Shown here piece after piece: positions 2,022-61,312 of a stretch of DNA of 64,000 nucleotides. The position numbers and the translations under genes are program-made. The stretch comes from Escherichia coli (GTDB lineage: Bacteria; Pseudomonadota; Gammaproteobacteria; Enterobacterales; Enterobacteriaceae), in assembly GCF_003334815.1 (NCBI RefSeq), contig NZ_QOWO01000009.1; one strand, written 5' to 3'. The notes beneath the pieces were generated by a model. It searched no databases, was not told the origin of the DNA, and saw only the letters and a list, made by a program, of their open reading frames with translations. Each line of letters begins with the position of its first letter. Within the stretch, counting starts at the first letter, position 1.

Positions 2022-4685
2022 TTACGCCAGACGCGGGTTAACTTTATCTGCATCGATGTTGAATTTGGCGATTGCGTCAGCAACCACTTTCTTATCGATT
2101 TCGCCACGTTTAGCCAGTTCGCCCAGCGCCGCAACCACGACATAAGAAGCATCAACTTCGAAGTGGTGACGCAGGTTCTCACGGCTGTCGGAACGACCGA
2201 AGCCATCAGTACCCAGTACGCGGTAGTCGTCAGCCGGTACGTAAGTACGGACCTGCTCAGCGAACAGTTTCATATAGTCGGTAGATGCCACTGCCGGAGC
2301 GTCGTTCATCACCTGAGCGATATACGGAACGCGCGGAGTTTCCAGCGGGTGCAGCATGTTCCAGCGTTCACAATCCTGACCATCACGCGCCAGCTCGGTG
2401 AAGGAGGTCACGCTATAAACGTCAGAACCTACGCCGTAATCTTTCGCCAGGATCTCAGCTGCTTCACGGACGTGACGCAGGATAGAACCGGAGCCGAGCA
2501 GCTGAACTTTACCTTTGCTACCTTCAATAGTTTCGAGTTTGTAGATACCTTTACGGATACCTTCCTCAGCACCTTCCGGCATTGCCGGCATGTGGTAGTT
2601 TTCGTTCAGCGTAGTGATGTAGTAGTAAACGTTCTCTTGTTTTTCACCGTACATACGCTCCAGACCGTCATGCATGATGACAGCAACTTCGTAAGCGTAA
2701 GCCGGGTCGTAAGAGATACAGTTCGGGATAGTCAGCGACTGAATGTGGCTGTGACCATCTTCGTGCTGCAGACCTTCGCCGTTCAGGGTGGTACGACCGG
2801 AAGTACCGCCGATCAGGAAGCCACGCGCTTGCTGGTCGCCAGCCGCCCAGCACAGATCGCCAATACGCTGGAAGCCGAACATCGAGTAATAGATGTAGAA
2901 CGGGATCATCGGCAGATTGTTGGTGCTGTAAGAGGTCGCCGCTGCCAGCCAGGAACAACCTGCGCCCAGCTCGTTGATCCCTTCCTGCAGAATCTGACCT
3001 TTCTCGTCTTCTTTATAGTAAGCAACCTGCTCGCGGTCCTGCGGGGTGTACTGCTGACCGTTCGGGCTGTAAATACCAATCTGACGGAACAGACCTTCCA
3101 TACCGAAAGTACGCGCTTCGTCGGCGATGATCGGTACCAGACGATCTTTGATCGACTTGTTCTTCAGCATCACGTTCAGAGCACGAACGAAAGCGATAGT
3201 GGTAGAGATCTCTTTGCTCTGCTCTTCCAACAGCGCGCCGAAGTCTTGCAGGCTCGGCAGCTCAAGCTTCTCGGTGAAGTTCGGCTGACGGCTTGGCAGA
3301 TAACCGTGCAGTTTCTGACGCTGAGCGTGCAGATAGGTATGCTCTTCAGAACCTTCCGGGAAGGTGATGTACGGCAGTTTTTCGATATCTGCATCAGACA
3401 CCGGCACATTGAAACGGTCGCGGATATGACGCACACCGTCCATGTTCATTTTCTTAACCTGGTGCGCGATGTTTTTACCTTCAGCCGCGTCGCCCATGCC
3501 GTAACCTTTAATGGTATGAGCAAGGATTACTGTCGCTTTGCCTTTGGTTTCCTGCGCTTTCTTGAATGCAGCGTAGATTTTCTTCGGATCGTGACCACCA
3601 CGGTTCAGTGCCCAGATCTGCTCGTCAGTCCAGTCTGCAACCAGTGCTGCGGTTTCAGGATATTTACCGAAGAAGTGTTCACGAACGTACGCACCATCTT
3701 TCGATTTGAAGGTCTGGTAGTCGCCGTCAACGGTTTCGTTCATCAGCTGGATCAGTTTACCGCTGGTATCCTTACGCAGCAGTTCATCCCAACGGCTACC
3801 CCACATCACTTTGATCACGTTCCAGCCAGCACCTTCGAAGATGCCTTCCAGTTCGTTGATGATCTTGCCGTTACCGGTGACCGGGCCGTCAAGACGCTGC
3901 AGGTTACAGTTGATAACGAAGACCAGGTTATCCAGTTTTTCACGGGTAGCGATGGTGATCGCACCTTTGGATTCCGGTTCGTCCATTTCACCGTCACCGA
4001 GGAACGCGTAAACGGTTTGTTTAGAGGTATCTTTCAGGCCACGGTGTTCCAGATATTTCAGGAATTTAGCCTGGTAAATAGCACCAATCGGACCCAGACC
4101 CATAGATACGGTCGGGAACTGCCAGAATTCCGGCATCAGTTTCGGGTGCGGATAGGAAGAGAGGCCATTGCCGTGAACTTCCTGACGGAAGTTATCCAGC
4201 TGCTCCTGAGTCAGACGACCTTCCAGGAAAGCACGAGCGTACACGCCCGGGGAGATGTGGCCCTGGAAGTAAACCAGGTCGCCGCCATCCTGCTCGTTGC
4301 GTGCACGGAAGAAGTGGTTAAAGCACACATCATAAATGGTTGCGGAAGACTGGAAGGACGCCATATGGCCGCCCAGTTCGAGGTCTTTTTTCGACGCACG
4401 CAGCACCGTCATGATGGCGTTCCAGCGGATAGCTGAACGAATACGGCGTTCCAGTTCCAGATTACCCGGATACTCCGGTTGTTCTTCAACGGGGATGGTG
4501 TTGATGTAGTTGCTGATACCTGTGCCTGCGGCTACGTTTACACCGCCTTTGCGGGCTTCAGCAAGCAGTTGGTCGATCAGATACTGAGCACGCTCAACAC
4601 CTTCTTCACGGATGACCGATTCGATCGCCTGGAGCCAGTCGCGAGTTTCGATCGGATCCACGTCATTTGGGAAACGTTCTGACAT
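2022..4685 (-). CDS. aceE: Pyruvate dehydrogenase E1 component (887 aa)
   Basis: ORF track 887 aa starting [24 protein letters not shown]; sits between pdhR and aceF as in the pdh operon. Confidence 0.97.
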
Positions 4686-4845: not shown

Positions 4846-5610
4846 CTAATTCTTTCGTTGCTCCAGACGACGCAGAGAACGCTCACGGCGGCTCTCTTCA
4901 CGACTTCTGTCGAGCAAAATTTCTTCGATAAAGGCCAGATGGCGATGCGATGCTTCGCGCGCTTCTTCCGGCTTACCGGCCATAATCGCTTCAAATATGC
5001 GGGTGCGGTGACTACTCACCAGCGGCAGCATCTCGCGACGCGAATAGAGCAATTCGAAGTTCTGGCGGACATTCTGGGCCAACATCGGCTCCATACACCT
5101 TAGCAGATGAAGCAGAACTACATTGTGGGCCGCTTCGGTGACGGCAATCTGATACTGGAGTACGGCGTTTGATTCCGCGTCCAGATCGCCAGACTGCTGC
5201 GCCAGCTCTATGGCGTGGTGGAGTTCACGGATGCGTTCCTTGTCTTCATCGGTACTACGCAGCGCGGCGTAATAAGCGGCGATACCTTCCAGGGCGTGTC
5301 GTGTTTCGAGCAAGTCATACTGTGACTCAGGATGGTCGGAGAGCAGCTCCACCAGCGGATCGCTGAAGCTTTGCCATAGGCTGCTCTGGACAAAAGTGCC
5401 GCCACCCTGGCGACGAAGCAACAAGCCCTTCGCTTCGAGACGTTGAATCGCCTCACGCAAGGAGGGACGGGAGACGTCAAACTGTTTTGCCAGTTCGCGT
5501 TCCGGTGGGAGTTTTTCGCCCGGGCGGAGAGTGCCTTCGAGGATCAAAAACTCCAGTTGCTGCTCAATCACATCGGAGAGTTTTGGTTGGCGGATTTTGC
5601 TGTAGGCCAT
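4846..5610 (-). CDS. pdhR: Pyruvate dehydrogenase complex repressor, GntR family (254 aa)
   Basis: ORF track frame; canonical start [18 protein letters not shown] is 11 codons inside the longest ORF; HTH GntR-type N-terminus. Confidence 0.93.
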
Positions 5611-8996: not shown

Positions 8997-9950
<954 letters not shown>

Positions 9951-10152
9951 TAGTTGACAGATTTATCCGCTCCATCGCGGGCGGATAATCTCCCCTTCCC
10001 CAACTTTCTTCGTAACGCCTCGCAAATTTCTTGTCTTTCGCTGCAACGAAATAAAAAACCTCGGAATCTGCTTTCCCGTTTCGTTTTTTGCCCCTCGCCT
10101 GTGCTGATGGCGTTTGCCAAAGTAGCGCCAACCAAATCAAGGAGCGAAACAG

Positions 10153-10593
10153 ATGGACAAGCAACGCGGTTTTACACTTATCGAACTGATGGTGGTTATT
10201 GGCATCATTGCCATTTTAAGCGCCATTGGTATTCCCGCTTATCAAAACTACCTGCGCAAAGCCGCACTCACCGACATGCTACAAACCTTTGTGCCTTACC
10301 GTACCGCCGTAGAGTTGTGCGCGCTGGAACATGGTGGATTAGATACCTGCGACGGTGGCAGCAATGGCATTCCCTCGCCTACCACCACCCGCTATGTTTC
10401 AGCCATGAGTGTGGCAAAGGGCGTGGTGTCGCTGACCGGGCAAGAAAGTCTCAATGGGCTAAGCGTCGTCATGACACCGGGTTGGGATAACGCAAACGGC
10501 GTCACCGGCTGGACGCGCAACTGCAATATTCAAAGTGACAGCGCATTGCAGCAAGCCTGCGAAGATGTCTTCCGCTTTGATGACGCCAACTAA
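10153..10593 (+). CDS. ppdD: Type IV prepilin (major pilin) with GFTLIELM N-terminal signature (146 aa)
   Basis: MDKQRGFTLIELMVVIGIIAIL is a textbook type IV prepilin leader/cleavage motif. Confidence 0.95.
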   Translation: MDKQRGFTLIELMVVIGIIAILSAIGIPAYQNYLRKAALTDMLQTFVPYRTAVELCALEHGGLDTCDGGSNGIPSPTTTRYVSAMSVAKGVVSLTGQESLNGLSVVMTPGWDNANGVTGWTRNCNIQSDSALQQACEDVFRFDDAN

Positions 10594-10602
10594 GGAGCGG
10601 CA

Positions 10603-11988
10603 ATGAATATTCCACAGCTCACTGCCCTGTGTCTGCGTTATCATGGAGTCTTGCTGGATGCCAGCGAAGAGGTGGTTCATGTTGCGGTAGTCGATGCACC
10701 TTCGCATGAGCTACTGGACGCATTGCATTTCGCTACCACCAAACGTATTGAGATCACCTGCTGGACGCGCCAACAAATGGAAGGTCACGCCAGTCGCACA
10801 CAACAGACATTGCCCGTAGCTGTTCAGGAGAAGCATCAGCCCAAAGCAGAGTTGCTAACTCGAACGTTACAATCTGCGCTGGAACAACGCGCGTCTGATA
10901 TTCATATCGAACCAGCGGACAATGCCTACCGCATCCGCTTGCGTATCGACGGCGTATTGCATCCTTTACCGGATGTTTCACCGGATGCCGGAGTCGCATT
11001 AACCGCCAGATTAAAAGTGCTGGGAAACCTGGATATTGCGGAACATCGCCTGCCGCAGGACGGGCAATTCACTGTCGAACTGGCAGGAAACGCCGTCTCA
11101 TTTCGTATTGCGACCTTACCATGTCGGGGTGGTGAAAAGGTGGTATTAAGGTTGTTACAGCAGGTGGGTCAGGCACTGGATGTCAACACGCTTGGAATGC
11201 AGCCGTTACAACTGGCGGACTTTGCTCATGCCTTGCAACAACCACAGGGACTGGTGCTGGTAACTGGCCCTACCGGCAGCGGCAAAACGGTCACGCTTTA
11301 TAGTGCCCTGCAAAAGCTGAATACCGCTGACATTAATATTTGTAGCGTCGAAGATCCAGTTGAGATCCCCATAGCCGGACTAAACCAGACGCAAATCCAT
11401 CCGCGTGCCGGACTCACCTTTCAGGGCGTTTTGCGTGCGTTATTGCGCCAGGATCCTGACGTCATCATGATCGGAGAGATCCGCGATGGCGAAACAGCAG
11501 AGATCGCTATTAAAGCGGCGCAAACTGGTCACCTGGTGTTGTCTACCCTACACACTAATTCCACCTGCGAAACGCTGGTACGTTTACAGCAAATGGGGGT
11601 CGCCCGCTGGATGCTATCATCGGCGCTTACGCTGGTAATAGCCCAGCGTCTGGTACGCAAACTTTGCCCACATTGTCGCCGGCAGCAAGGGGAGCCCATC
11701 CACATTCCAGACAATGTATGGCCATCGCCGCTGCCCCACTGGCAGGCACCCGGTTGTGTACATTGCTACCACGGTTTTTATGGTCGTACGGCCTTATTTG
11801 AAGTTCTGCCCATAACGCCGGTCATTCGTCAGCTTATTTCCGCTAATACCGACGTTGAATCGCTGGAAACGCACGCACGACAGGCGGGTATGCGTACGCT
11901 TTTTGAAAACGGCTGCCTGGCCGTAGAGCAAGGCTTAACCACCTTTGAAGAGTTAATCCGCGTACTGGGGATGCCGCATGGCGAGTAA
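10603..11988 (+). CDS. hofB: Type IV pilus assembly ATPase, GspE/PilB family (461 aa)
   Basis: Walker A GPTGSGKT, C-terminal CxxC zinc motif; directly downstream of ppdD. Confidence 0.93.
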   Translation: MNIPQLTALCLRYHGVLLDASEEVVHVAVVDAPSHELLDALHFATTKRIEITCWTRQQMEGHASRTQQTLPVAVQEKHQPKAELLTRTLQSALEQRASDIHIEPADNAYRIRLRIDGVLHPLPDVSPDAGVALTARLKVLGNLDIAEHRLPQDGQFTVELAGNAVSFRIATLPCRGGEKVVLRLLQQVGQALDVNTLGMQPLQLADFAHALQQPQGLVLVTGPTGSGKTVTLYSALQKLNTADINICSVEDPVEIPIAGLNQTQIHPRAGLTFQGVLRALLRQDPDVIMIGEIRDGETAEIAIKAAQTGHLVLSTLHTNSTCETLVRLQQMGVARWMLSSALTLVIAQRLVRKLCPHCRRQQGEPIHIPDNVWPSPLPHWQAPGCVHCYHGFYGRTALFEVLPITPVIRQLISANTDVESLETHARQAGMRTLFENGCLAVEQGLTTFEELIRVLGMPHGE

Positions 11989-13180
11989 GCAACTCTGGCG
12001 CTGGCATGGCATAACCGGCGACGGCAATGCGCAAGATGGGATGCTATGGGCAGAGAGCCGTACTTTACTGCTTATGGCACTACAGCAACAGATGGTTACC
12101 CCACTAAGCCTGAAGCGAATCGCCATCAATTCTGCGCAGTGGCGAGGAGATAAAAGCGCGGAAGTCATTCATCAACTGGCGACGCTACTCAAAGCAGGGT
12201 TAACGCTTTCTGAAGGGCTGGCTCTGCTGGCGGAACAGCATCCCAGTAAGCAATGGCAAGCGTTGCTGCAATCGCTGGCGCACGATCTCGAACAGGGCAT
12301 TGCTTTTTCCAATGCCTTATTACCCTGGTCAGAGGTATTTCCGCCGCTCTATCAGGCGATGATCCGCACGGGTGAACTGACCGGTAAGCTGGATGAATGC
12401 TGCTTTGAACTGGCGCGTCAGCAAAAAGCCCAGCGTCAGTTGACCGACAAAGTGAAATCAGCGTTACGTTATCCCATCATCATTTTAGCGATGGCAATCA
12501 TGGTGGTTGTGGCAATGCTGCATTTTGTTCTGCCGGAGTTTGCCGCTATCTATAAGACCTTCAACACCCCACTACCGGCACTAACGCAGGGGATCATGAC
12601 GCTGGCAGACTTTAGTGGCGAATGGAGCTGGCTGCTGGTGTTGTTCGGCTTTCTGCTGGCGATAGCCAATAAGTTGCTGATGCGCCGACCGACCTGGCTT
12701 ATAGTGCGGCAGAAATTGCTGTTACGCATCCCGATTATGGGTTCACTGATGCGGGGACAAAAACTCACGCAGATCTTTACGATTCTGGCGCTGACACAAA
12801 GTGCAGGCATTACTTTTTTACAGGGCGTAGAGAGCGTCAGAGAAACAATGCGCTGCCCGTACTGGGTGCAACTTCTGACACAAATCCAGCACGATATCAG
12901 TAACGGTCAACCCATCTGGCTGGCGCTAAAAAATACCGGTGAGTTTAGCCCGCTCTGTTTGCAATTAGTGAGAACAGGAGAGGCATCCGGCTCTCTGGAT
13001 CTCATGTTAGACAACCTCGCCCATCATCATCGGGAAAACACAATGGCGCTGGCGGATAACCTCGCAGCCTTACTGGAACCGGCGTTGCTGATCATAACGG
13101 GAGGAATTATTGGTACGCTGGTGGTGGCAATGTATCTGCCAATTTTCCATTTAGGCGATGCGATGAGTGGGATGGGATAA
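11978..13180 (+). CDS. hofC: Type IV pilus inner-membrane platform protein, GspF/PilC family (400 aa)
   Basis: ORF track 400 aa, overlaps hofB end by 11 bp; polytopic membrane protein. Confidence 0.92.
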   Translation: MASKQLWRWHGITGDGNAQDGMLWAESRTLLLMALQQQMVTPLSLKRIAINSAQWRGDKSAEVIHQLATLLKAGLTLSEGLALLAEQHPSKQWQALLQSLAHDLEQGIAFSNALLPWSEVFPPLYQAMIRTGELTGKLDECCFELARQQKAQRQLTDKVKSALRYPIIILAMAIMVVVAMLHFVLPEFAAIYKTFNTPLPALTQGIMTLADFSGEWSWLLVLFGFLLAIANKLLMRRPTWLIVRQKLLLRIPIMGSLMRGQKLTQIFTILALTQSAGITFLQGVESVRETMRCPYWVQLLTQIQHDISNGQPIWLALKNTGEFSPLCLQLVRTGEASGSLDLMLDNLAHHHRENTMALADNLAALLEPALLIITGGIIGTLVVAMYLPIFHLGDAMSGMG

Positions 13181-13206
13181 CGCTGGCGTGTTGCTCCACG
13201 CCAGCG
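13181..13206. terminator. Bidirectional hairpin cgctggcgtgttgctccacgccagcg between convergent hofC and guaC
   Basis: Perfect 9-bp GC-rich stem in the 34-bp gap between two convergent stop codons. Confidence 0.6.
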
Positions 13207-13214
13207 TTGGGAGA

Positions 13215-14258
13215 TTACAGGTTGTTGAAGATGCGGTTTTCTTGTTCCTGCACACGAATAAACGTGGTGCGCTTGGTCAGCTCTTTCAGGCGTGAAGCCC
13301 CAACGTATGTACAAGCTGAACGCAGGCCGCCCAAAATATCTCGCGCGGTATTTTCAACCGGGCCTCGCAGCGGCAGCTTAACGGTTTTACCTTCTGCTGC
13401 GCGATATTCCGCAACGCCGCCAACGTGACGTTTCATCGCAGACTCGGAGCTCATGCCGTAGAACAGCATAAATTTCTCGCCGTTCTCCTCAACGATGCGA
13501 CCGCCGCTCTCTTCGTGGCCCGCCAGCATGCCGCCAAGCATGACGAAATCGGCACCGCCGCCAAAGGCTTTCGCCACATCGCCCGGCGTGGTGCAGCCAC
13601 CATCGCTGACGATCATTCCGCCCAGACCGTGCGCAGCATCGGCACATTCGATTACCGCAGAAAGTTGCGGATAACCGACGCCTGTTTTGACGCGAGTTGT
13701 ACAAACAGAACCTGGGCCAATGCCAACTTTAACGATATCGGCACCTGAGAGGATAAGCTCCTCACACATTTCACCAGTCACTACGTTACCAGCACAAATG
13801 GTTTTGGTCGGCCACGCTTCACGCGCTTTCGCAACGAACTGCACGAAGTGTTCGGAATAACCATTCGCCACGTCAATACAAACGAAGTTTAATGCCGGGT
13901 TCAGGTCGAGAATCTGTTTAGTTTTTTCGAAATCCGCATCAGACGTACCGGTAGAAACCATCACATGTTTCAGCACATCAGCGGAAGAATTGTTGATAAA
14001 CGCTTGCCACTCTTCGACAGAATAGTGTTTATGCACAGCAGTCAAAATATCAAAAGAAGCCAGCGCAGAGGCCATAGAAAATGTGCCTACGGTGTCCATA
14101 TTTGCGGCGATAATCGGCACGCCGGACCAGCTCTGACCTGAATGTTTGAAGGTGAATTGACGTTCCAGTTCAACATCGGAACGGCTTTTAAGAGTGGAGC
14201 GTTTAGGGCGGATGAGAACGTCTTTAAAACCTAACTTCAGATCTTCTTCAATACGCAT
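13215..14258 (-). CDS. guaC: GMP reductase (347 aa)
   Basis: ORF track 347 aa [32 protein letters not shown] family. Confidence 0.96.
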
Positions 14259-33052: not shown

Positions 33053-34536
33053 GCAATCACCCCCAGCAGACGCGCCACCGTGACGCGATCGGAGTAGTCC
33101 AGACGCTGATTGCCAACAATCTGGTAATCTTCATGGCCTTTGCCCGCGACCAGTACCACATCATTCTCTTTAGCCTGCATAACGGCGCAAGTCACCGCTT
33201 CAGCACGGCCTTCCATCACTTTGGCATGTCCGGCATCTAACATTCCCGCCAGAATATCGTTGATGATGGCACGCGGTTCTTCGGTACGCGGGTTATCGTC
33301 CGTCACCACCGCCACGTCAGCAAACTCTTCGGCAATTGCGCCCATCAGTGGACGCTTACCTTTATCGCGATCGCCACCACAGCCAAAGACACACCACAGC
33401 TTGCCCGCACAGTGCAGACGCGCCGCCTGTAAGGCTTTTTCCAGTGCATCCGGCGTATGCGCGTAATCCACCACCACCGTCGGTTTGCCTGGCGCAGTGA
33501 ACACTTCCATACGTCCGCAAACCGGTTGCAGACGCGCGGCGGTTTTCAGCAGATCAGCCAGTGGATAGCCGAGTGCCAACAGTGTCGCCAGCGCGAGCAG
33601 CAGGTTGCTGACGTTAAAAGCGCCCATCAGATGGCTTTCAATTTCGCCATCGCCCCAACTTGAGCTAAAGCGAATCGTCGCACCGCTGTCGTGATAGTTC
33701 ACTTCGGTCGCTTTCAACCAGCGTCCGTGACAGTTCGGATTAATATGATCTTCCATTGATACCGCAACCGCGTCCGGCAGTTTTGCCAGCCAGCGGCGGC
33801 CCACTTCATCGTCGGCGTTAATAATCGCCTGACCGCAATGATGCTCAGAATAAAGCAGCCATTTCGCGGCTTCGTAGTGTTCCATATCACCATGATAATC
33901 AAGGTGATCGCGGCTTAAGTTGGTAAAGACCGACGCCGCAAATTTCAATGCCGCCACACGGTGCTGTACCAGCCCGTGGGAGGAAACTTCCATTGCGCAA
34001 AACGTCGCGCCCTGATCCACCAGCCCCGCCAGCTCATGCTGAACATCGACTGCCGAACCGGTTGTATTTTCTGTCGGGATCACTTTCCCCAGCAGGCCGT
34101 TACCAACGGTGCCCATTACCGCGCTGGTTTCGCCAAGCAGTTGGCTCCACTGCGCCAACAGCTGGGTAGTCGTGGTTTTGCCGTTGGTGCCCGTTACGCC
34201 CACGAGACGTAAATTGTCAGAGGGTTCATGGTAAAAGCGGCCCGCCAGTGCAGATAAACGCTCGTTGAGCTGGCTGAGATAGATGACCGGTACGCCGTGC
34301 ATTTCACGGATTTCACCATCGGTCGCCTCATCTTTCGCCTCTGCAATAATGGCAGCCACACCTTGCGCTATCGCCTGCGGGATATATCGACGCCCGTCCG
34401 CCTGATGACCTACTACAGCTACAAAGAGATCGCCCGCCGCAGCCACACGGCTGTCGAGTGTCATCTCTCGCAGTGCTCGCGAAGGTGCGTCTGGCACCCA
34501 CGGAGCAAGAAGGTCGCGCAAATTACGATCTGCCAC
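33049..34536 (-). CDS. murE: UDP-MurNAc-L-Ala-D-Glu--meso-diaminopimelate ligase (495 aa)
   Basis: ORF track 495 aa, Mur ligase motif TGTNGKTTT. Confidence 0.97.
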
Positions 34537-60870: not shown

Positions 60871-61312
60871 GCCGCATCCGGTATGTAACGCCTGATGCGA
60901 CGCTGACGCGTCTTATCTGGCCTACACGCTGCGATTTTGTAGGCCGGATAAGCAAAGCGCATCCGGCATTCAACGCCTGATGCGACGCTGGCGCGTCTTA
61001 TCAGGCCTACGCGCTGCGATTTTGTAGGCCGGATAAGCAAAGCGCATCCGGCATTCAACGCCTGATGCGACGCTGGCGCGTCTTATCAGGCCTACGCGCT
61101 GCGATTTTGTAGGCCGGATAAGCAAAGCGCATCCGGCATTCAACGCCTGATGCGACGCTGGCGCGTCTTATCAGGCCTACGCGCTGCGATTTTGTAGGCC
61201 GGATAAGCAAAGCGCATCCGGCATTCAACGCCTGATGCGACGCTGGCGCGTCTTATCAGGCCTACACGCTGCGATTTTGTAGGCCGGATAAGCAAAGCGC
61301 ATCCGGCACGAA
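60871..61312. repeat. Tandem REP/BIME array: about 5 copies of an 85-bp unit, each unit containing two inverted REP palindromes
   Basis: cctgatgcga recurs at 60891, 60976, 61061, 61146, 61231 (exact 85-bp period); the three middle units appear identical. Confidence 0.9.

Follow-up and report, generated by a model that had tools for sequence, protein, structure and literature searches.

The pilABCD genes of Haemophilus influenzae and Vibrio cholerae run in the order pilin-ATPase-platform and serve DNA uptake from a CRP-S promoter controlled by Sxy/TfoX and cAMP-CRP, and in all of these respects the ppdD-hofB-hofC operon of E. coli resembles them. EHEC O157:H7 carries an orthologous operon, hcpA-hcpB-hcpC, whose mature pilin differs from PpdD at 1 of 140 residues. 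For the E. coli operon itself, Cameron and Redfield (2006) found that CRP binds a ppdD fragment, weakly in vitro, and that Sxy induction is 90-fold and fully CRP- and cAMP-dependent (PMC1635313). Induction of sxy yields processed PpdD and hofQ-dependent DNA uptake (PMC3330819), a 13-gene set has been reported to give pilus assembly in laboratory E. coli, and PpdD assembles into helical pili in published experiments, the structure of the pilus having been solved (6gv9, 6gms). We take from this literature that the operon depends on Sxy and CRP, that the pilin is processed and the pilus assembled, and that DNA uptake requires hofQ.

The locus that we analysed is almost certainly the E. coli K-12 ppdD-hofB-hofC operon, one of four unlinked type IVa pilus gene sets and under Sxy/CRP control. 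The operon is already known and well studied and its genes are ordinary; as a finding this textbook K-12 locus alters nothing in current knowledge, although its intactness and the selection on it have now been verified. A single new lead emerges, an extra conserved motif in the promoter. An initial annotation had described the module as poorly expressed in the laboratory, not novel and of debated physiological role. The first two statements agree with the literature, which on the third is indeed divided among DNA uptake or nutrient use, adhesion and kidney persistence. Its further description as the least understood element of the window calls for a change of emphasis, since the regulator, the pilus structure, the 13-gene reconstitution and hofQ-dependent DNA uptake have all been published.

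Gene identity, layout and conservation of the operon

The window (the whole 64-kb stretch of DNA that was analysed) differs from K-12 at 2 SNPs and in the copy number of one repeat and is otherwise equal to it. The three genes and the 3.4-kb region around them show 100% identity with E. coli K-12 MG1655, and of 5426 complete E. coli genomes 5424 contain at least 80% of this region. Positions 10153-13180 of the plus strand hold three intact, tightly packed ORFs with no internal stops, the first coordinate being exactly the ppdD start and the last exactly the hofC stop (Table 1). RefSeq labels them, in order, ppdD, 'gspE' (= hofB) and hofC, and all three proteins match NCBIfam equivalogs end to end and above cut-off. 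The gene junctions fit the single operon that had been proposed: ppdD and hofB are 9 nt apart, with AAGGAG ahead of hofB, and hofB and hofC overlap by 11 nt. Co-transcription is also supported by the published 90-fold Sxy induction, since the qPCR amplicon of that study (PMC1635313) maps to 10924-11032, inside hofB. Gene identity, intactness and operon layout are established by these comparisons.

Table 1. Features of the ppdD-hofB-hofC locus (positions in the window)
Feature	Position	Strand	Remarks
CRP-S (Sxy-dependent CRP) site TTCTTCGTAACGCCTCGCAAAT	10006-10027	+	centre 10016.5; diagnostic C6 and G17
TTGTCT, candidate weak -35 (inferred)	10031-10036	+	15-nt spacer to TAAAAA
TGCAAC element	10042-10047	+	starts 25 nt 3' of CRP-S centre; candidate second-regulator site or promoter spacer
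TAAAAA, candidate weak -10 hexamer (inferred)	10052-10057	+	conserved block
Palindrome CGGAA-N6-TTCCCG	10062-10078		centre 10069.5; 53 bp from CRP-S centre
Conserved T-run and GCCCCTCGCC block	10084-10099	+	species alignment
Shine-Dalgarno AAGGAG of ppdD	10140-10145	+	from sequence; ~90% conserved
ppdD, type IVa major prepilin, 146 aa	10153-10593	+	NF007862, Pfam, PDB
hofB, PilB/GspE-family pilus assembly ATPase, 461 aa	10603-11988	+	NF007755, Pfam T2SSE
hofC, PilC/GspF-family inner-membrane platform protein, 400 aa	11978-13180	+	NF007861, Pfam T2SSF
13-bp hairpin	13178-13209		between convergent hofC and guaC; overlaps hofC stop codon

The hairpin at the 3' end of the operon has a predicted energy of -24.4 kcal/mol (z = -3.6 relative to shuffles) and is probably a bidirectional terminator or a 3'-end stabiliser, with no U-tract; a simple terminator scan missed it because a T-run is absent. 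An Rfam search of 9800-13400 at E<=1 gave no match.

PpdD begins MDKQRG/FTLIELMVV, with Gly at -1, Phe at +1 and Glu at +5, and the class III prepilin peptidase signal leads into a hydrophobic N-terminal helix (MDKQRG/FTLIELMVVIGIIAIL). Taking a leader below 10 aa and a mature length of about 140-160 aa as the type IVa criterion, the 6-aa leader and 140-aa mature pilin fit type IVa and not type IVb. The protein scores 35.9 bits with TIGR02532 (cut-off 16.3) and 269 bits with NF007862 (cut-off 138, model positions 1-145 of 145 covered), and it contains the Pfam domains N_methyl (4.7e-10) and Pilin. Once mature, it is identical at 139 of 140 residues to the chains of the cryo-EM pilus PDB 6gv9. 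Cysteines 56 and 66 correspond to mature C50-C60, and cysteines 124 and 136 to mature C118-C130 in the C-terminal loop, positions that agree with the two disulfide bonds, C50-C60 and C118-C130, reported in the literature.

HofB matches NF007755 at 823 bits (cut-off 617), and its Pfam T2SSE domain (PF00437) covers residues 75-453 (1.3e-146). Near the N-terminus there is a weak partial match to MshEN (residues 8-69 align with positions 24-86 of the 90-position model, E = 3e-5), and alignment to the PilB model begins at model position 160. The motifs comprise Walker A GPTGSGKT (residue 222), a Walker B-like VIMIGEIRD, a TGH His box and a C-terminal tetracysteine (zinc) motif, CPHC at 355 and CVHC at 385, which separates assembly ATPases from PilT. 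The RefSeq product name for hofB, 'type II secretion system protein GspE', is misleading; it derives from NF007755, a HofB-type model. HofC matches NF007861 at 661 bits (cut-off 401), carries two T2SSF (PF00482) domains (64-186 and 269-388) and three hydrophobic segments (~159-192, 212-236 and 361-395), and has M. xanthus PilC (3jc8) as its nearest PDB relative. NCBIfam, Pfam and PDB all agree with the initial annotation in its assignment of a pilin with a GFTLIELM leader, a PilB/GspE ATPase with GPTGSGKT and a PilC/GspF platform protein. It had also allowed for a pseudo-operon with frameshifts or premature stops and for the lack of a pilin-class signal peptide; the ORFs are intact and PpdD carries the signal.

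These family assignments bear on whether the module might instead serve type II secretion, with PpdD as a pseudopilin and HofB and HofC as secretion ATPase and platform. That view draws on the RefSeq name of hofB, on the Pfam domain names T2SSE and T2SSF and on matches of HofB, HofC and PpdD to the GspE, GspF and GspG models, all below threshold. K-12, however, has its own complete gspC-O operon elsewhere, the true GspE of which is 44% identical to HofB. HofB scores higher with the PilB model (486 bits) than with the GspE model (458 bits), both below cut-off (for the latter, TIGR02533, 457.6 bits with a cut-off of 630.25), and its nearest PDB relatives are PilB proteins. PpdD, moreover, forms a true type IV pilus by cryo-EM, and the partner genes are of the PilMNOPQ type. 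A type II secretion function is effectively refuted, and we regard the module as belonging to a type IVa pilus.

The partners of the operon are encoded elsewhere. No secretin or PilMNOP-like gene is present in the annotated 64-kb window (aceF to polB), as had been noted from the sequence. A search of the rest of the genome for hofQ and hofMNOP had been proposed, and on the matching K-12 chromosome hofMNOPQ, ppdAB-ygdB-ppdC, pppA, gspO and yggR all lie more than 1 Mb away. The K-12 hofMNOPQ products are annotated as DNA utilization proteins and a DNA uptake porin (PilMNOPQ-type), and K-12 also has a separate true gspC-M operon plus gspO. The location of the partner genes is thereby established.

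Across enterobacteria, full-length orthologs are found in 99 of 101 cases for ppdD, 70 of 73 for hofB and 53 of 55 for hofC, and the synteny nadC>ppdD>hofB>hofC<guaC is kept in about 100 Enterobacteriaceae species. The median identity of PpdD across genera is 83%. Within Escherichia, where dS is unsaturated, dN/dS is 0.016-0.05 for ppdD, 0.076-0.086 for hofB and 0.107-0.108 for hofC, which establishes purifying selection. An operon that is silent in the laboratory might be a functionless, decaying relic that is intact in K-12 by chance, and HofB and HofC do diverge 2.5-3.5 times faster than flanking housekeeping proteins, truncated genes occur in a few (four) species representatives and IS903B lies inside the region in one E. 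coli strain. Against decay stand the dN/dS values of 0.02-0.11 for the three genes, their full length in about 96-98% of species, the near-universal presence of at least 80% of the region in E. coli (5424/5426), promoter elements conserved across about 100 species and published experiments in which the induced genes are functional. A relic is thus very improbable, and we take the operon to be maintained by selection.

Control by Sxy and CRP and the role of the pilus

CRP-S sites are 22-bp CRP sites that are recognised by C6 and G17. The one upstream of ppdD was placed by phylogenetic footprinting together with the published CRP-binding EMSA fragment (PMC1635313), which maps to 9939-10069 with the site mid-fragment. 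In 61 of 101 Enterobacteriaceae species the best CRP-S-like 22-mer is centred 131-136 nt upstream of the ATG, compared with 2.6% in shuffles, and among those 61 sites C6 is present in 60 and G17 in 47. These data establish both the position and the conservation of the site. Scanning the window with the consensus TGCGA-N6-TCGCA alone was uninformative (33 matches versus 46 expected). The published need for Sxy (TfoX) and cAMP-CRP in its transcription explains why the operon is silent in laboratory cultures.

A sigma-70 consensus promoter scan gave no match. The candidate -35 and -10 hexamers of Table 1 would put the centre of the CRP-S site near -47, a position that is standard for neither class I nor class II; in other Sxy-regulon promoters an A-rich hexamer likewise follows TGCAA by 5-7 nt. 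Compared by eye with the sigma-54 (-24/-12), sigma-32 and sigma-E consensus sequences, the conserved blocks fit neither the spacing nor the invariant bases of any of them.

In the mechanism that we favour, transcription from upstream of ppdD is essentially off until Sxy (TfoX) and cAMP-CRP act together at the weak CRP-S site (10006-10027). PpdD is made as a prepilin, which GspO or PppA, both encoded elsewhere, cleaves after Gly-1 and methylates on Phe+1. By homology with PilB and PilC, we infer that hexameric HofB docked on inner-membrane HofC would then pull pilins from the membrane and polymerise them. Other loci supply an alignment complex (HofMNOP), a secretin (HofQ) and minor pilins (PpdA-PpdB-YgdB-PpdC). 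The product is a type IVa pilus that goes by the name of competence pilus and that in EHEC is called the 'hemorrhagic coli pilus' (HCP).

With a different emphasis, the pilus would be mainly an adhesin or virulence fibre, as for HCP in EHEC or in UPEC kidney persistence, and not a DNA-uptake machine. HCP bundles in EHEC mediate adherence, invasion and cytokine induction (PMC2920817), and UPEC hofQ mutants show reduced persistence in the mouse kidney (PMC2649431). Yet commensals and pathogens both conserve the competence-type CRP-S site, the operon shares its regulation with DNA-processing genes such as dprA and comM, and hofQ is required for Sxy-induced DNA uptake. The pilin also varies unusually little for an adhesin that is exposed (median identity 83%, dN/dS 0.02-0.05). 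That adhesion is the main role seems unlikely, although the adhesin and DNA-uptake roles are not mutually exclusive and can coexist.

A conserved TGCAA(C) element in the ppdD promoter

In the alignment of ppdD promoters from 101 species, a TGCAAC block 3' of the CRP-S site is about 90% conserved in its columns. Exact TGCAA occurs in the expected 13-nt window in 69 of the 101 species, compared with 1% in shuffles, and in 61 of these 69 it starts at +24 or +25 from the CRP-S centre. The K-12 hofM, ppdA, yggR and dprA promoters have TGCAA at the same offset from the CRP-S centre as ppdD. Exact tandem TGCAA with a 10-bp period is found in K-12 hofM and ppdA, the element at ppdA being conserved across 11 genera; at ppdD, the pentamer 10 bp upstream of TGCAAC is degenerate, most species showing 2-3 mismatches. 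Period-10 pairs number 2 in 343 kb of K-12 DNA versus an estimated expectation of about 0.9, which is not significant alone, and the weight of the pairs comes from their location, fixed offset and cross-species conservation rather than from their count. The idea that TGCAA repeats are exclusive to pilus operons, as in the V. cholerae class that responds to CytR and TfoX, is weakened by dprA, which has TGCAA at +24; comM and comEA have TTGCA variants at other offsets.

By sequence comparison, TGCAA(C) matches a CytR half-site. CytR operators consist of paired TGCAA/TTGCA half-sites, in octamers AATGCAAC/GTTGCATT, on one helix face (PMC3454398), and lie between two CRP sites about 49-53 bp apart (PMC4581735). 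At ppdD, the palindrome that lies 53 bp away from the middle of the CRP-S site has a 5-N6-5 form and is a poor match to the CRP core (4 of 10 positions in K-12); K-12 hofM and yggR have comparable candidates at +53. Across species the arms of the palindrome are conserved and its spacer is variable, and GGAA-N6-TTCC occurs four times in the 64-kb window. A covarying RNA hairpin or attenuator is unlikely here, given the free spacer and a left-arm G>T in Citrobacter that is uncompensated; a T-run begins about 6 nt past the stem. The GCCCCTCGCC block that follows has a similar counterpart, TTTTTTTCTCCTCGC, upstream of K-12 ppdA.

In V. cholerae, CytR is needed alongside TfoX at the pilus genes. 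In the papers searched we found none linking CytR to ppdD, hofM or ppdA and no description of the TGCAA(C) element, though the element or the exact site may already have been reported. We suggest, tentatively and as a possibility that is rather less probable than not, that TGCAA(C) in Sxy-regulon promoters may be bound by a second regulator through which activation by Sxy and CRP is gated, with CytR as the best candidate. In that case the availability of nucleosides would supply part of the natural signal that is missing for this 'cryptic' pilus. The suggestion touches an old question, the natural switch of the E. coli competence and pilus genes and the action of Sxy at CRP-S promoters, and the TGCAA element and the palindrome offer targets for mutation, with CytR as a specific testable regulator.

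Comparison with known systems

The EHEC HCP pilin and K-12 PpdD agree in both disulfides and in the ALEH residues of the calcium site, and the two pili depend on the same accessory genes. EHEC makes pili on minimal casein medium, whereas K-12 does so under no natural condition known. Compared with H. influenzae and V. cholerae, E. coli has no known natural inducing signal or chromosomal transformation, and while pilABCD includes the pilD peptidase gene, the E. coli operon is without it, GspO and PppA being encoded elsewhere. The K-12 type II secretion proteins GspG, GspE and GspF belong to families homologous to PpdD, HofB and HofC and have the same architecture; in contrast, they are encoded at another locus, which has a secretin of its own and a complete set of pseudopilins, and HofB, HofC and PpdD miss the T2SS equivalog cut-offs.

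The PilA, PilB and PilC proteins of Pseudomonas, Neisseria and Myxococcus share with those of the operon the class III signal, the tetracysteine T2SSE ATPase and the platform with two T2SSF domains. HofB differs in an N-terminus about 100-120 residues shorter than that of the listed PilB chains (461 versus 566-588 aa), and PpdD differs from classical PilA in its second disulfide, which is typical of the enterobacterial subclass. In ppdD-hofB-hofC conservation is higher for the pilin than for the ATPase, whereas in classical type IVa systems the reverse is usually the case.

Identity, layout and partners of the operon

The initial annotation had read ppdD-hofB-hofC as a cryptic and not novel type IV pilus module; the module is real and was rightly read, and the locus is already known. 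It consists of three plus-strand ORFs between nadC (+) on one side and the convergent guaC (−) on the other, with the pilin leader and Walker A motif first quoted for it: the PpdD N-terminus is MDKQRG/FTLIELMVV and HofB carries GPTGSGKT, VIMIGEIRD, a TGH box and CPHC...CVHC. A gap of 9 nt separates ppdD from hofB, AAGGAG precedes both starts, and the last 11 nt of hofB are shared with hofC. Positions 9900-13300 match E. coli K-12 MG1655 with 100% identity, and 5424 of the 5426 complete E. coli genomes contain at least 80% of this region. The window as a whole equals the MG1655 record (NZ_CP032667.1) apart from SNPs at 5119 (within pdhR) and 34127 (within murE), the only substitutions up to ~61,096, and an ~85-bp tandem repeat in the araA-araD spacer (~60873-61308), of which the window has two copies (170 bp) more than the record.

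All three products match their NCBIfam equivalogs over the full length: PpdD NF007862 (269 bits, cut-off 138), HofB NF007755 (823 bits, cut-off 617) and HofC NF007861 (661 bits, cut-off 401). Their Pfam domains are N_methyl and Pilin in PpdD, T2SSE with a weak partial MshEN match in HofB, and two T2SSF domains in HofC. PpdD is represented in the PDB by 6gv9 (pilus) and 6gms, with 139 of 140 residues identical, while the closest PDB relatives are PilB proteins for HofB and M. xanthus PilC for HofC. RefSeq annotates the genes at exactly the same coordinates, and through model NF007755 PGAP labels hofB 'gspE: type II secretion system protein GspE'. Since the true gsp operon lies elsewhere and K-12 GspE is a paralog sharing 44% identity with HofB, this name is misleading and could misdirect automated readers.

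As first noted, secretin and PilMNOP-type genes are absent from the annotated window (aceF to polB). The suggested search for hofQ and hofMNOP elsewhere found them together in the K-12 chromosome, where every other machine gene is separated from the operon by over 1 Mb of the 4.64-Mb circle. The 13-gene set, driven by a strong promoter, is reported to be sufficient for PpdD pilus assembly in laboratory E. coli (preprint and works cited there), and EHEC produces these pili under the name 'HCP' (PMC2920817). Kidney persistence is reduced in UPEC hofQ mutants (PMC2649431).

Coordinates of the operon, its upstream features and related K-12 loci (window positions unless stated; L numbers denote K-12 loci)
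Feature	Location	Strand	Remark
ppdD ORF	10153-10593	+	146 aa
hofB ORF	10603-11988	+	461 aa
hofC ORF	11978-13180	+	400 aa
13-bp hairpin	13178-13209		between hofC and guaC; −24.4 kcal/mol, z = −3.6
CRP-S site, TTCTTCGTAACGCCTCGCAAAT	10006-10027		by footprinting
TGCAAC block	10042-10047		conserved across species compared
TAAAAAA block	10052-10058		conserved across species compared
Palindrome CGGAA-N6-TTCCCG	10062-10078		conserved; centre 53 bp from CRP-S centre
T-run, then GCCCCTCGCC	10084-10099		conserved across species compared
GCCAAAG block	10116-10122		conserved across species compared
TGCAA element at hofM	L004 ~5463-5477		upstream
TGCAA element at ppdA	L005 ~4103-4117		upstream
TGCAA element at yggR	L006		upstream of yggR (33296)
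TGCAA element at dprA	L128		upstream of dprA (9816)
yggR perfect CRP-S core, TTCTGCGATGGCGCTCGCAGGT	L006 ~33145-33166		centre 141 nt upstream of yggR start; TGCAA at +25
hofMNOPQ	K-12 chromosome 360,623-363,909
ppdA-ppdB-ygdB-ppdC	K-12 chromosome 919,198-920,934		adjoining recC
pppA	K-12 chromosome 769,023
yggR (PilT-like)	K-12 chromosome 788,295
gspO	K-12 chromosome 417,155

Intactness and selection

A single DNA-pattern scan for the PpdD N-terminus in species-representative genomes yielded 120 loci, and the order nadC>ppdD>hofB>hofC<guaC is kept in ~100 Enterobacteriaceae species. Full-length ORFs were found for 99 of 103 closed ppdD ORFs (99 of 101 enterobacterial orthologs, two of the four deviant ORFs being non-orthologous pilins), 70/73 hofB and 53/55 hofC, compared with 84/84 for nadC and 45/45 for guaC. 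Within Escherichia (dS 0.12-0.73), dN/dS was 0.016-0.05 for ppdD, 0.076-0.086 for hofB and 0.107-0.108 for hofC; the flanking genes gave 0.025-0.076 (nadC) and 0.007-0.011 (guaC). Intact ORFs across orthologs together with low dN/dS therefore place ppdD, hofB and hofC under purifying selection. A search for internal stops in the three window ORFs found none, and with orthologs mostly full length and dN/dS low we reject a pseudo-operon; neither the frameshifts or stops nor the missing pilin signal peptide that the initial annotation had named as grounds against its reading were seen.

Operon disruption is sporadic. ppdD is truncated to 84 aa in Kluyvera genomosp. 3 and 58 aa in Citrobacter braakii ATCC 51113, hofB to 192 aa in Citrobacter sp. 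MGH106, and hofC is likewise truncated in C. amalonaticus and the same Kluyvera; in E. coli strain 74-2 an IS903B insertion lies inside the matched region. A further match, a 532-bp contig (coverage 0.78) of 'Arthrobacter sp. GMC3' (NZ_PJIO01000150.1), codes for a NadC C-terminus 100% identical to that of E. coli and a PpdD N-terminus 98% identical, and is almost certainly E. coli contamination of an actinobacterial assembly.

Across 31 complete loci, median protein identity to K-12 was 85% for NadC, 92% for GuaC, 83% for PpdD (81% without the first 30 residues), 66% for HofB and 58% for HofC. The pilin is thus constrained like housekeeping genes, at about the level of nadC, and far more than the motor HofB or the platform HofC. 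Such an inverted gradient, with a pilin better conserved than its motor, is unusual among type IV pili.

The CRP-S site and its surroundings

Our promoter scan found no sigma-70 consensus promoter. A CRP-S site at ppdD, bound weakly but specifically by CRP, was described by Cameron and Redfield (2006, PMC1635313), who also measured a 90-fold induction by Sxy requiring both CRP and cAMP. Their EMSA fragment maps to 9939-10069 and their 'ppdD' qPCR amplicon to 10924-11032, within hofB, and the amplicon therefore supports co-transcription. Induction of sxy leads to processed PpdD and hofQ-dependent DNA uptake (Sinha and Redfield 2012, PMC3330819); how Sxy acts was still unknown according to a 2018 preprint.

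We placed the CRP-S site by phylogenetic footprinting of 101 sequences (K-12 and 100 other species representatives), whose nadC-ppdD spacers measure 160-247 bp. The best CRP-S-like 22-mer is centred 131-136 nt upstream of the ATG in 61 of the 101 (2.6% in shuffles), with C6 in 60 and G17 in 47 of those 61 sites. In several species the core is a perfect TGCGA-N6-TCGCA.

Among the other conserved blocks, the centre of the palindrome and that of the CRP-S site are ~5 helical turns apart. Because the arms of the palindrome are conserved and its spacer is free, it would fit a protein-binding site more readily than a hairpin in the RNA. CRP-CRP spacings of 49-53 bp have been used to predict CytR-controlled promoters (PMC4581735); the palindrome resembles a CRP site only poorly, although its spacing falls within that range.

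The TGCAA element as a candidate CytR half-site

An exact TGCAA occurs in the expected window upstream of ppdD in 69 of 101 species (1% in shuffles), starting at +24/+25 from the CRP-S centre in 61 of the 69. At K-12 ppdD, hofM, ppdA, dprA and yggR alike, TGCAA(C) begins 24-25 nt downstream of that centre, followed after 5-7 nt by an A-rich hexamer at the last four. At ppdD and ppdA, conservation of the element extends across Enterobacteriaceae; as dprA also carries it, it is not specific to pilus operons. A second TGCAA lies exactly 10 bp upstream at hofM and ppdA, the only two such pairs in 343 kb of K-12 DNA scanned, and the corresponding repeat at ppdD is degenerate. Among thyA-ppdA spacers of 11 genera, eight have an exact pair and two a pair with one mismatch, and the sequence separating the pentamers is free to vary. 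The hofM repeats fall within the mrcA coding sequence. We found no description of the element in the accessible literature.

The CytR half-site is TGCAA/TTGCA within AATGCAAC/GTTGCATT and functions in direct or inverted repeats along a single face of the helix (PMC3454398). The element matches this half-site, and from sequence it is possibly a candidate site for CytR; it might instead be a spacer feature of these promoters and not a regulator site. In the accessible literature we found nothing linking CytR to the ppdD, hofM or ppdA promoters, and we regard the element as a lead, not a result. For comparison with the CytR reading, dependence on both CytR and TfoX (Sxy) is known in V. cholerae for pilABCD, pilMNOPQ and the genes of the minor pilins, by an unknown mechanism (PMC4581735), and at udp, a known CytR target, TGCAA likewise lies at +25 from the distal CRP centre.
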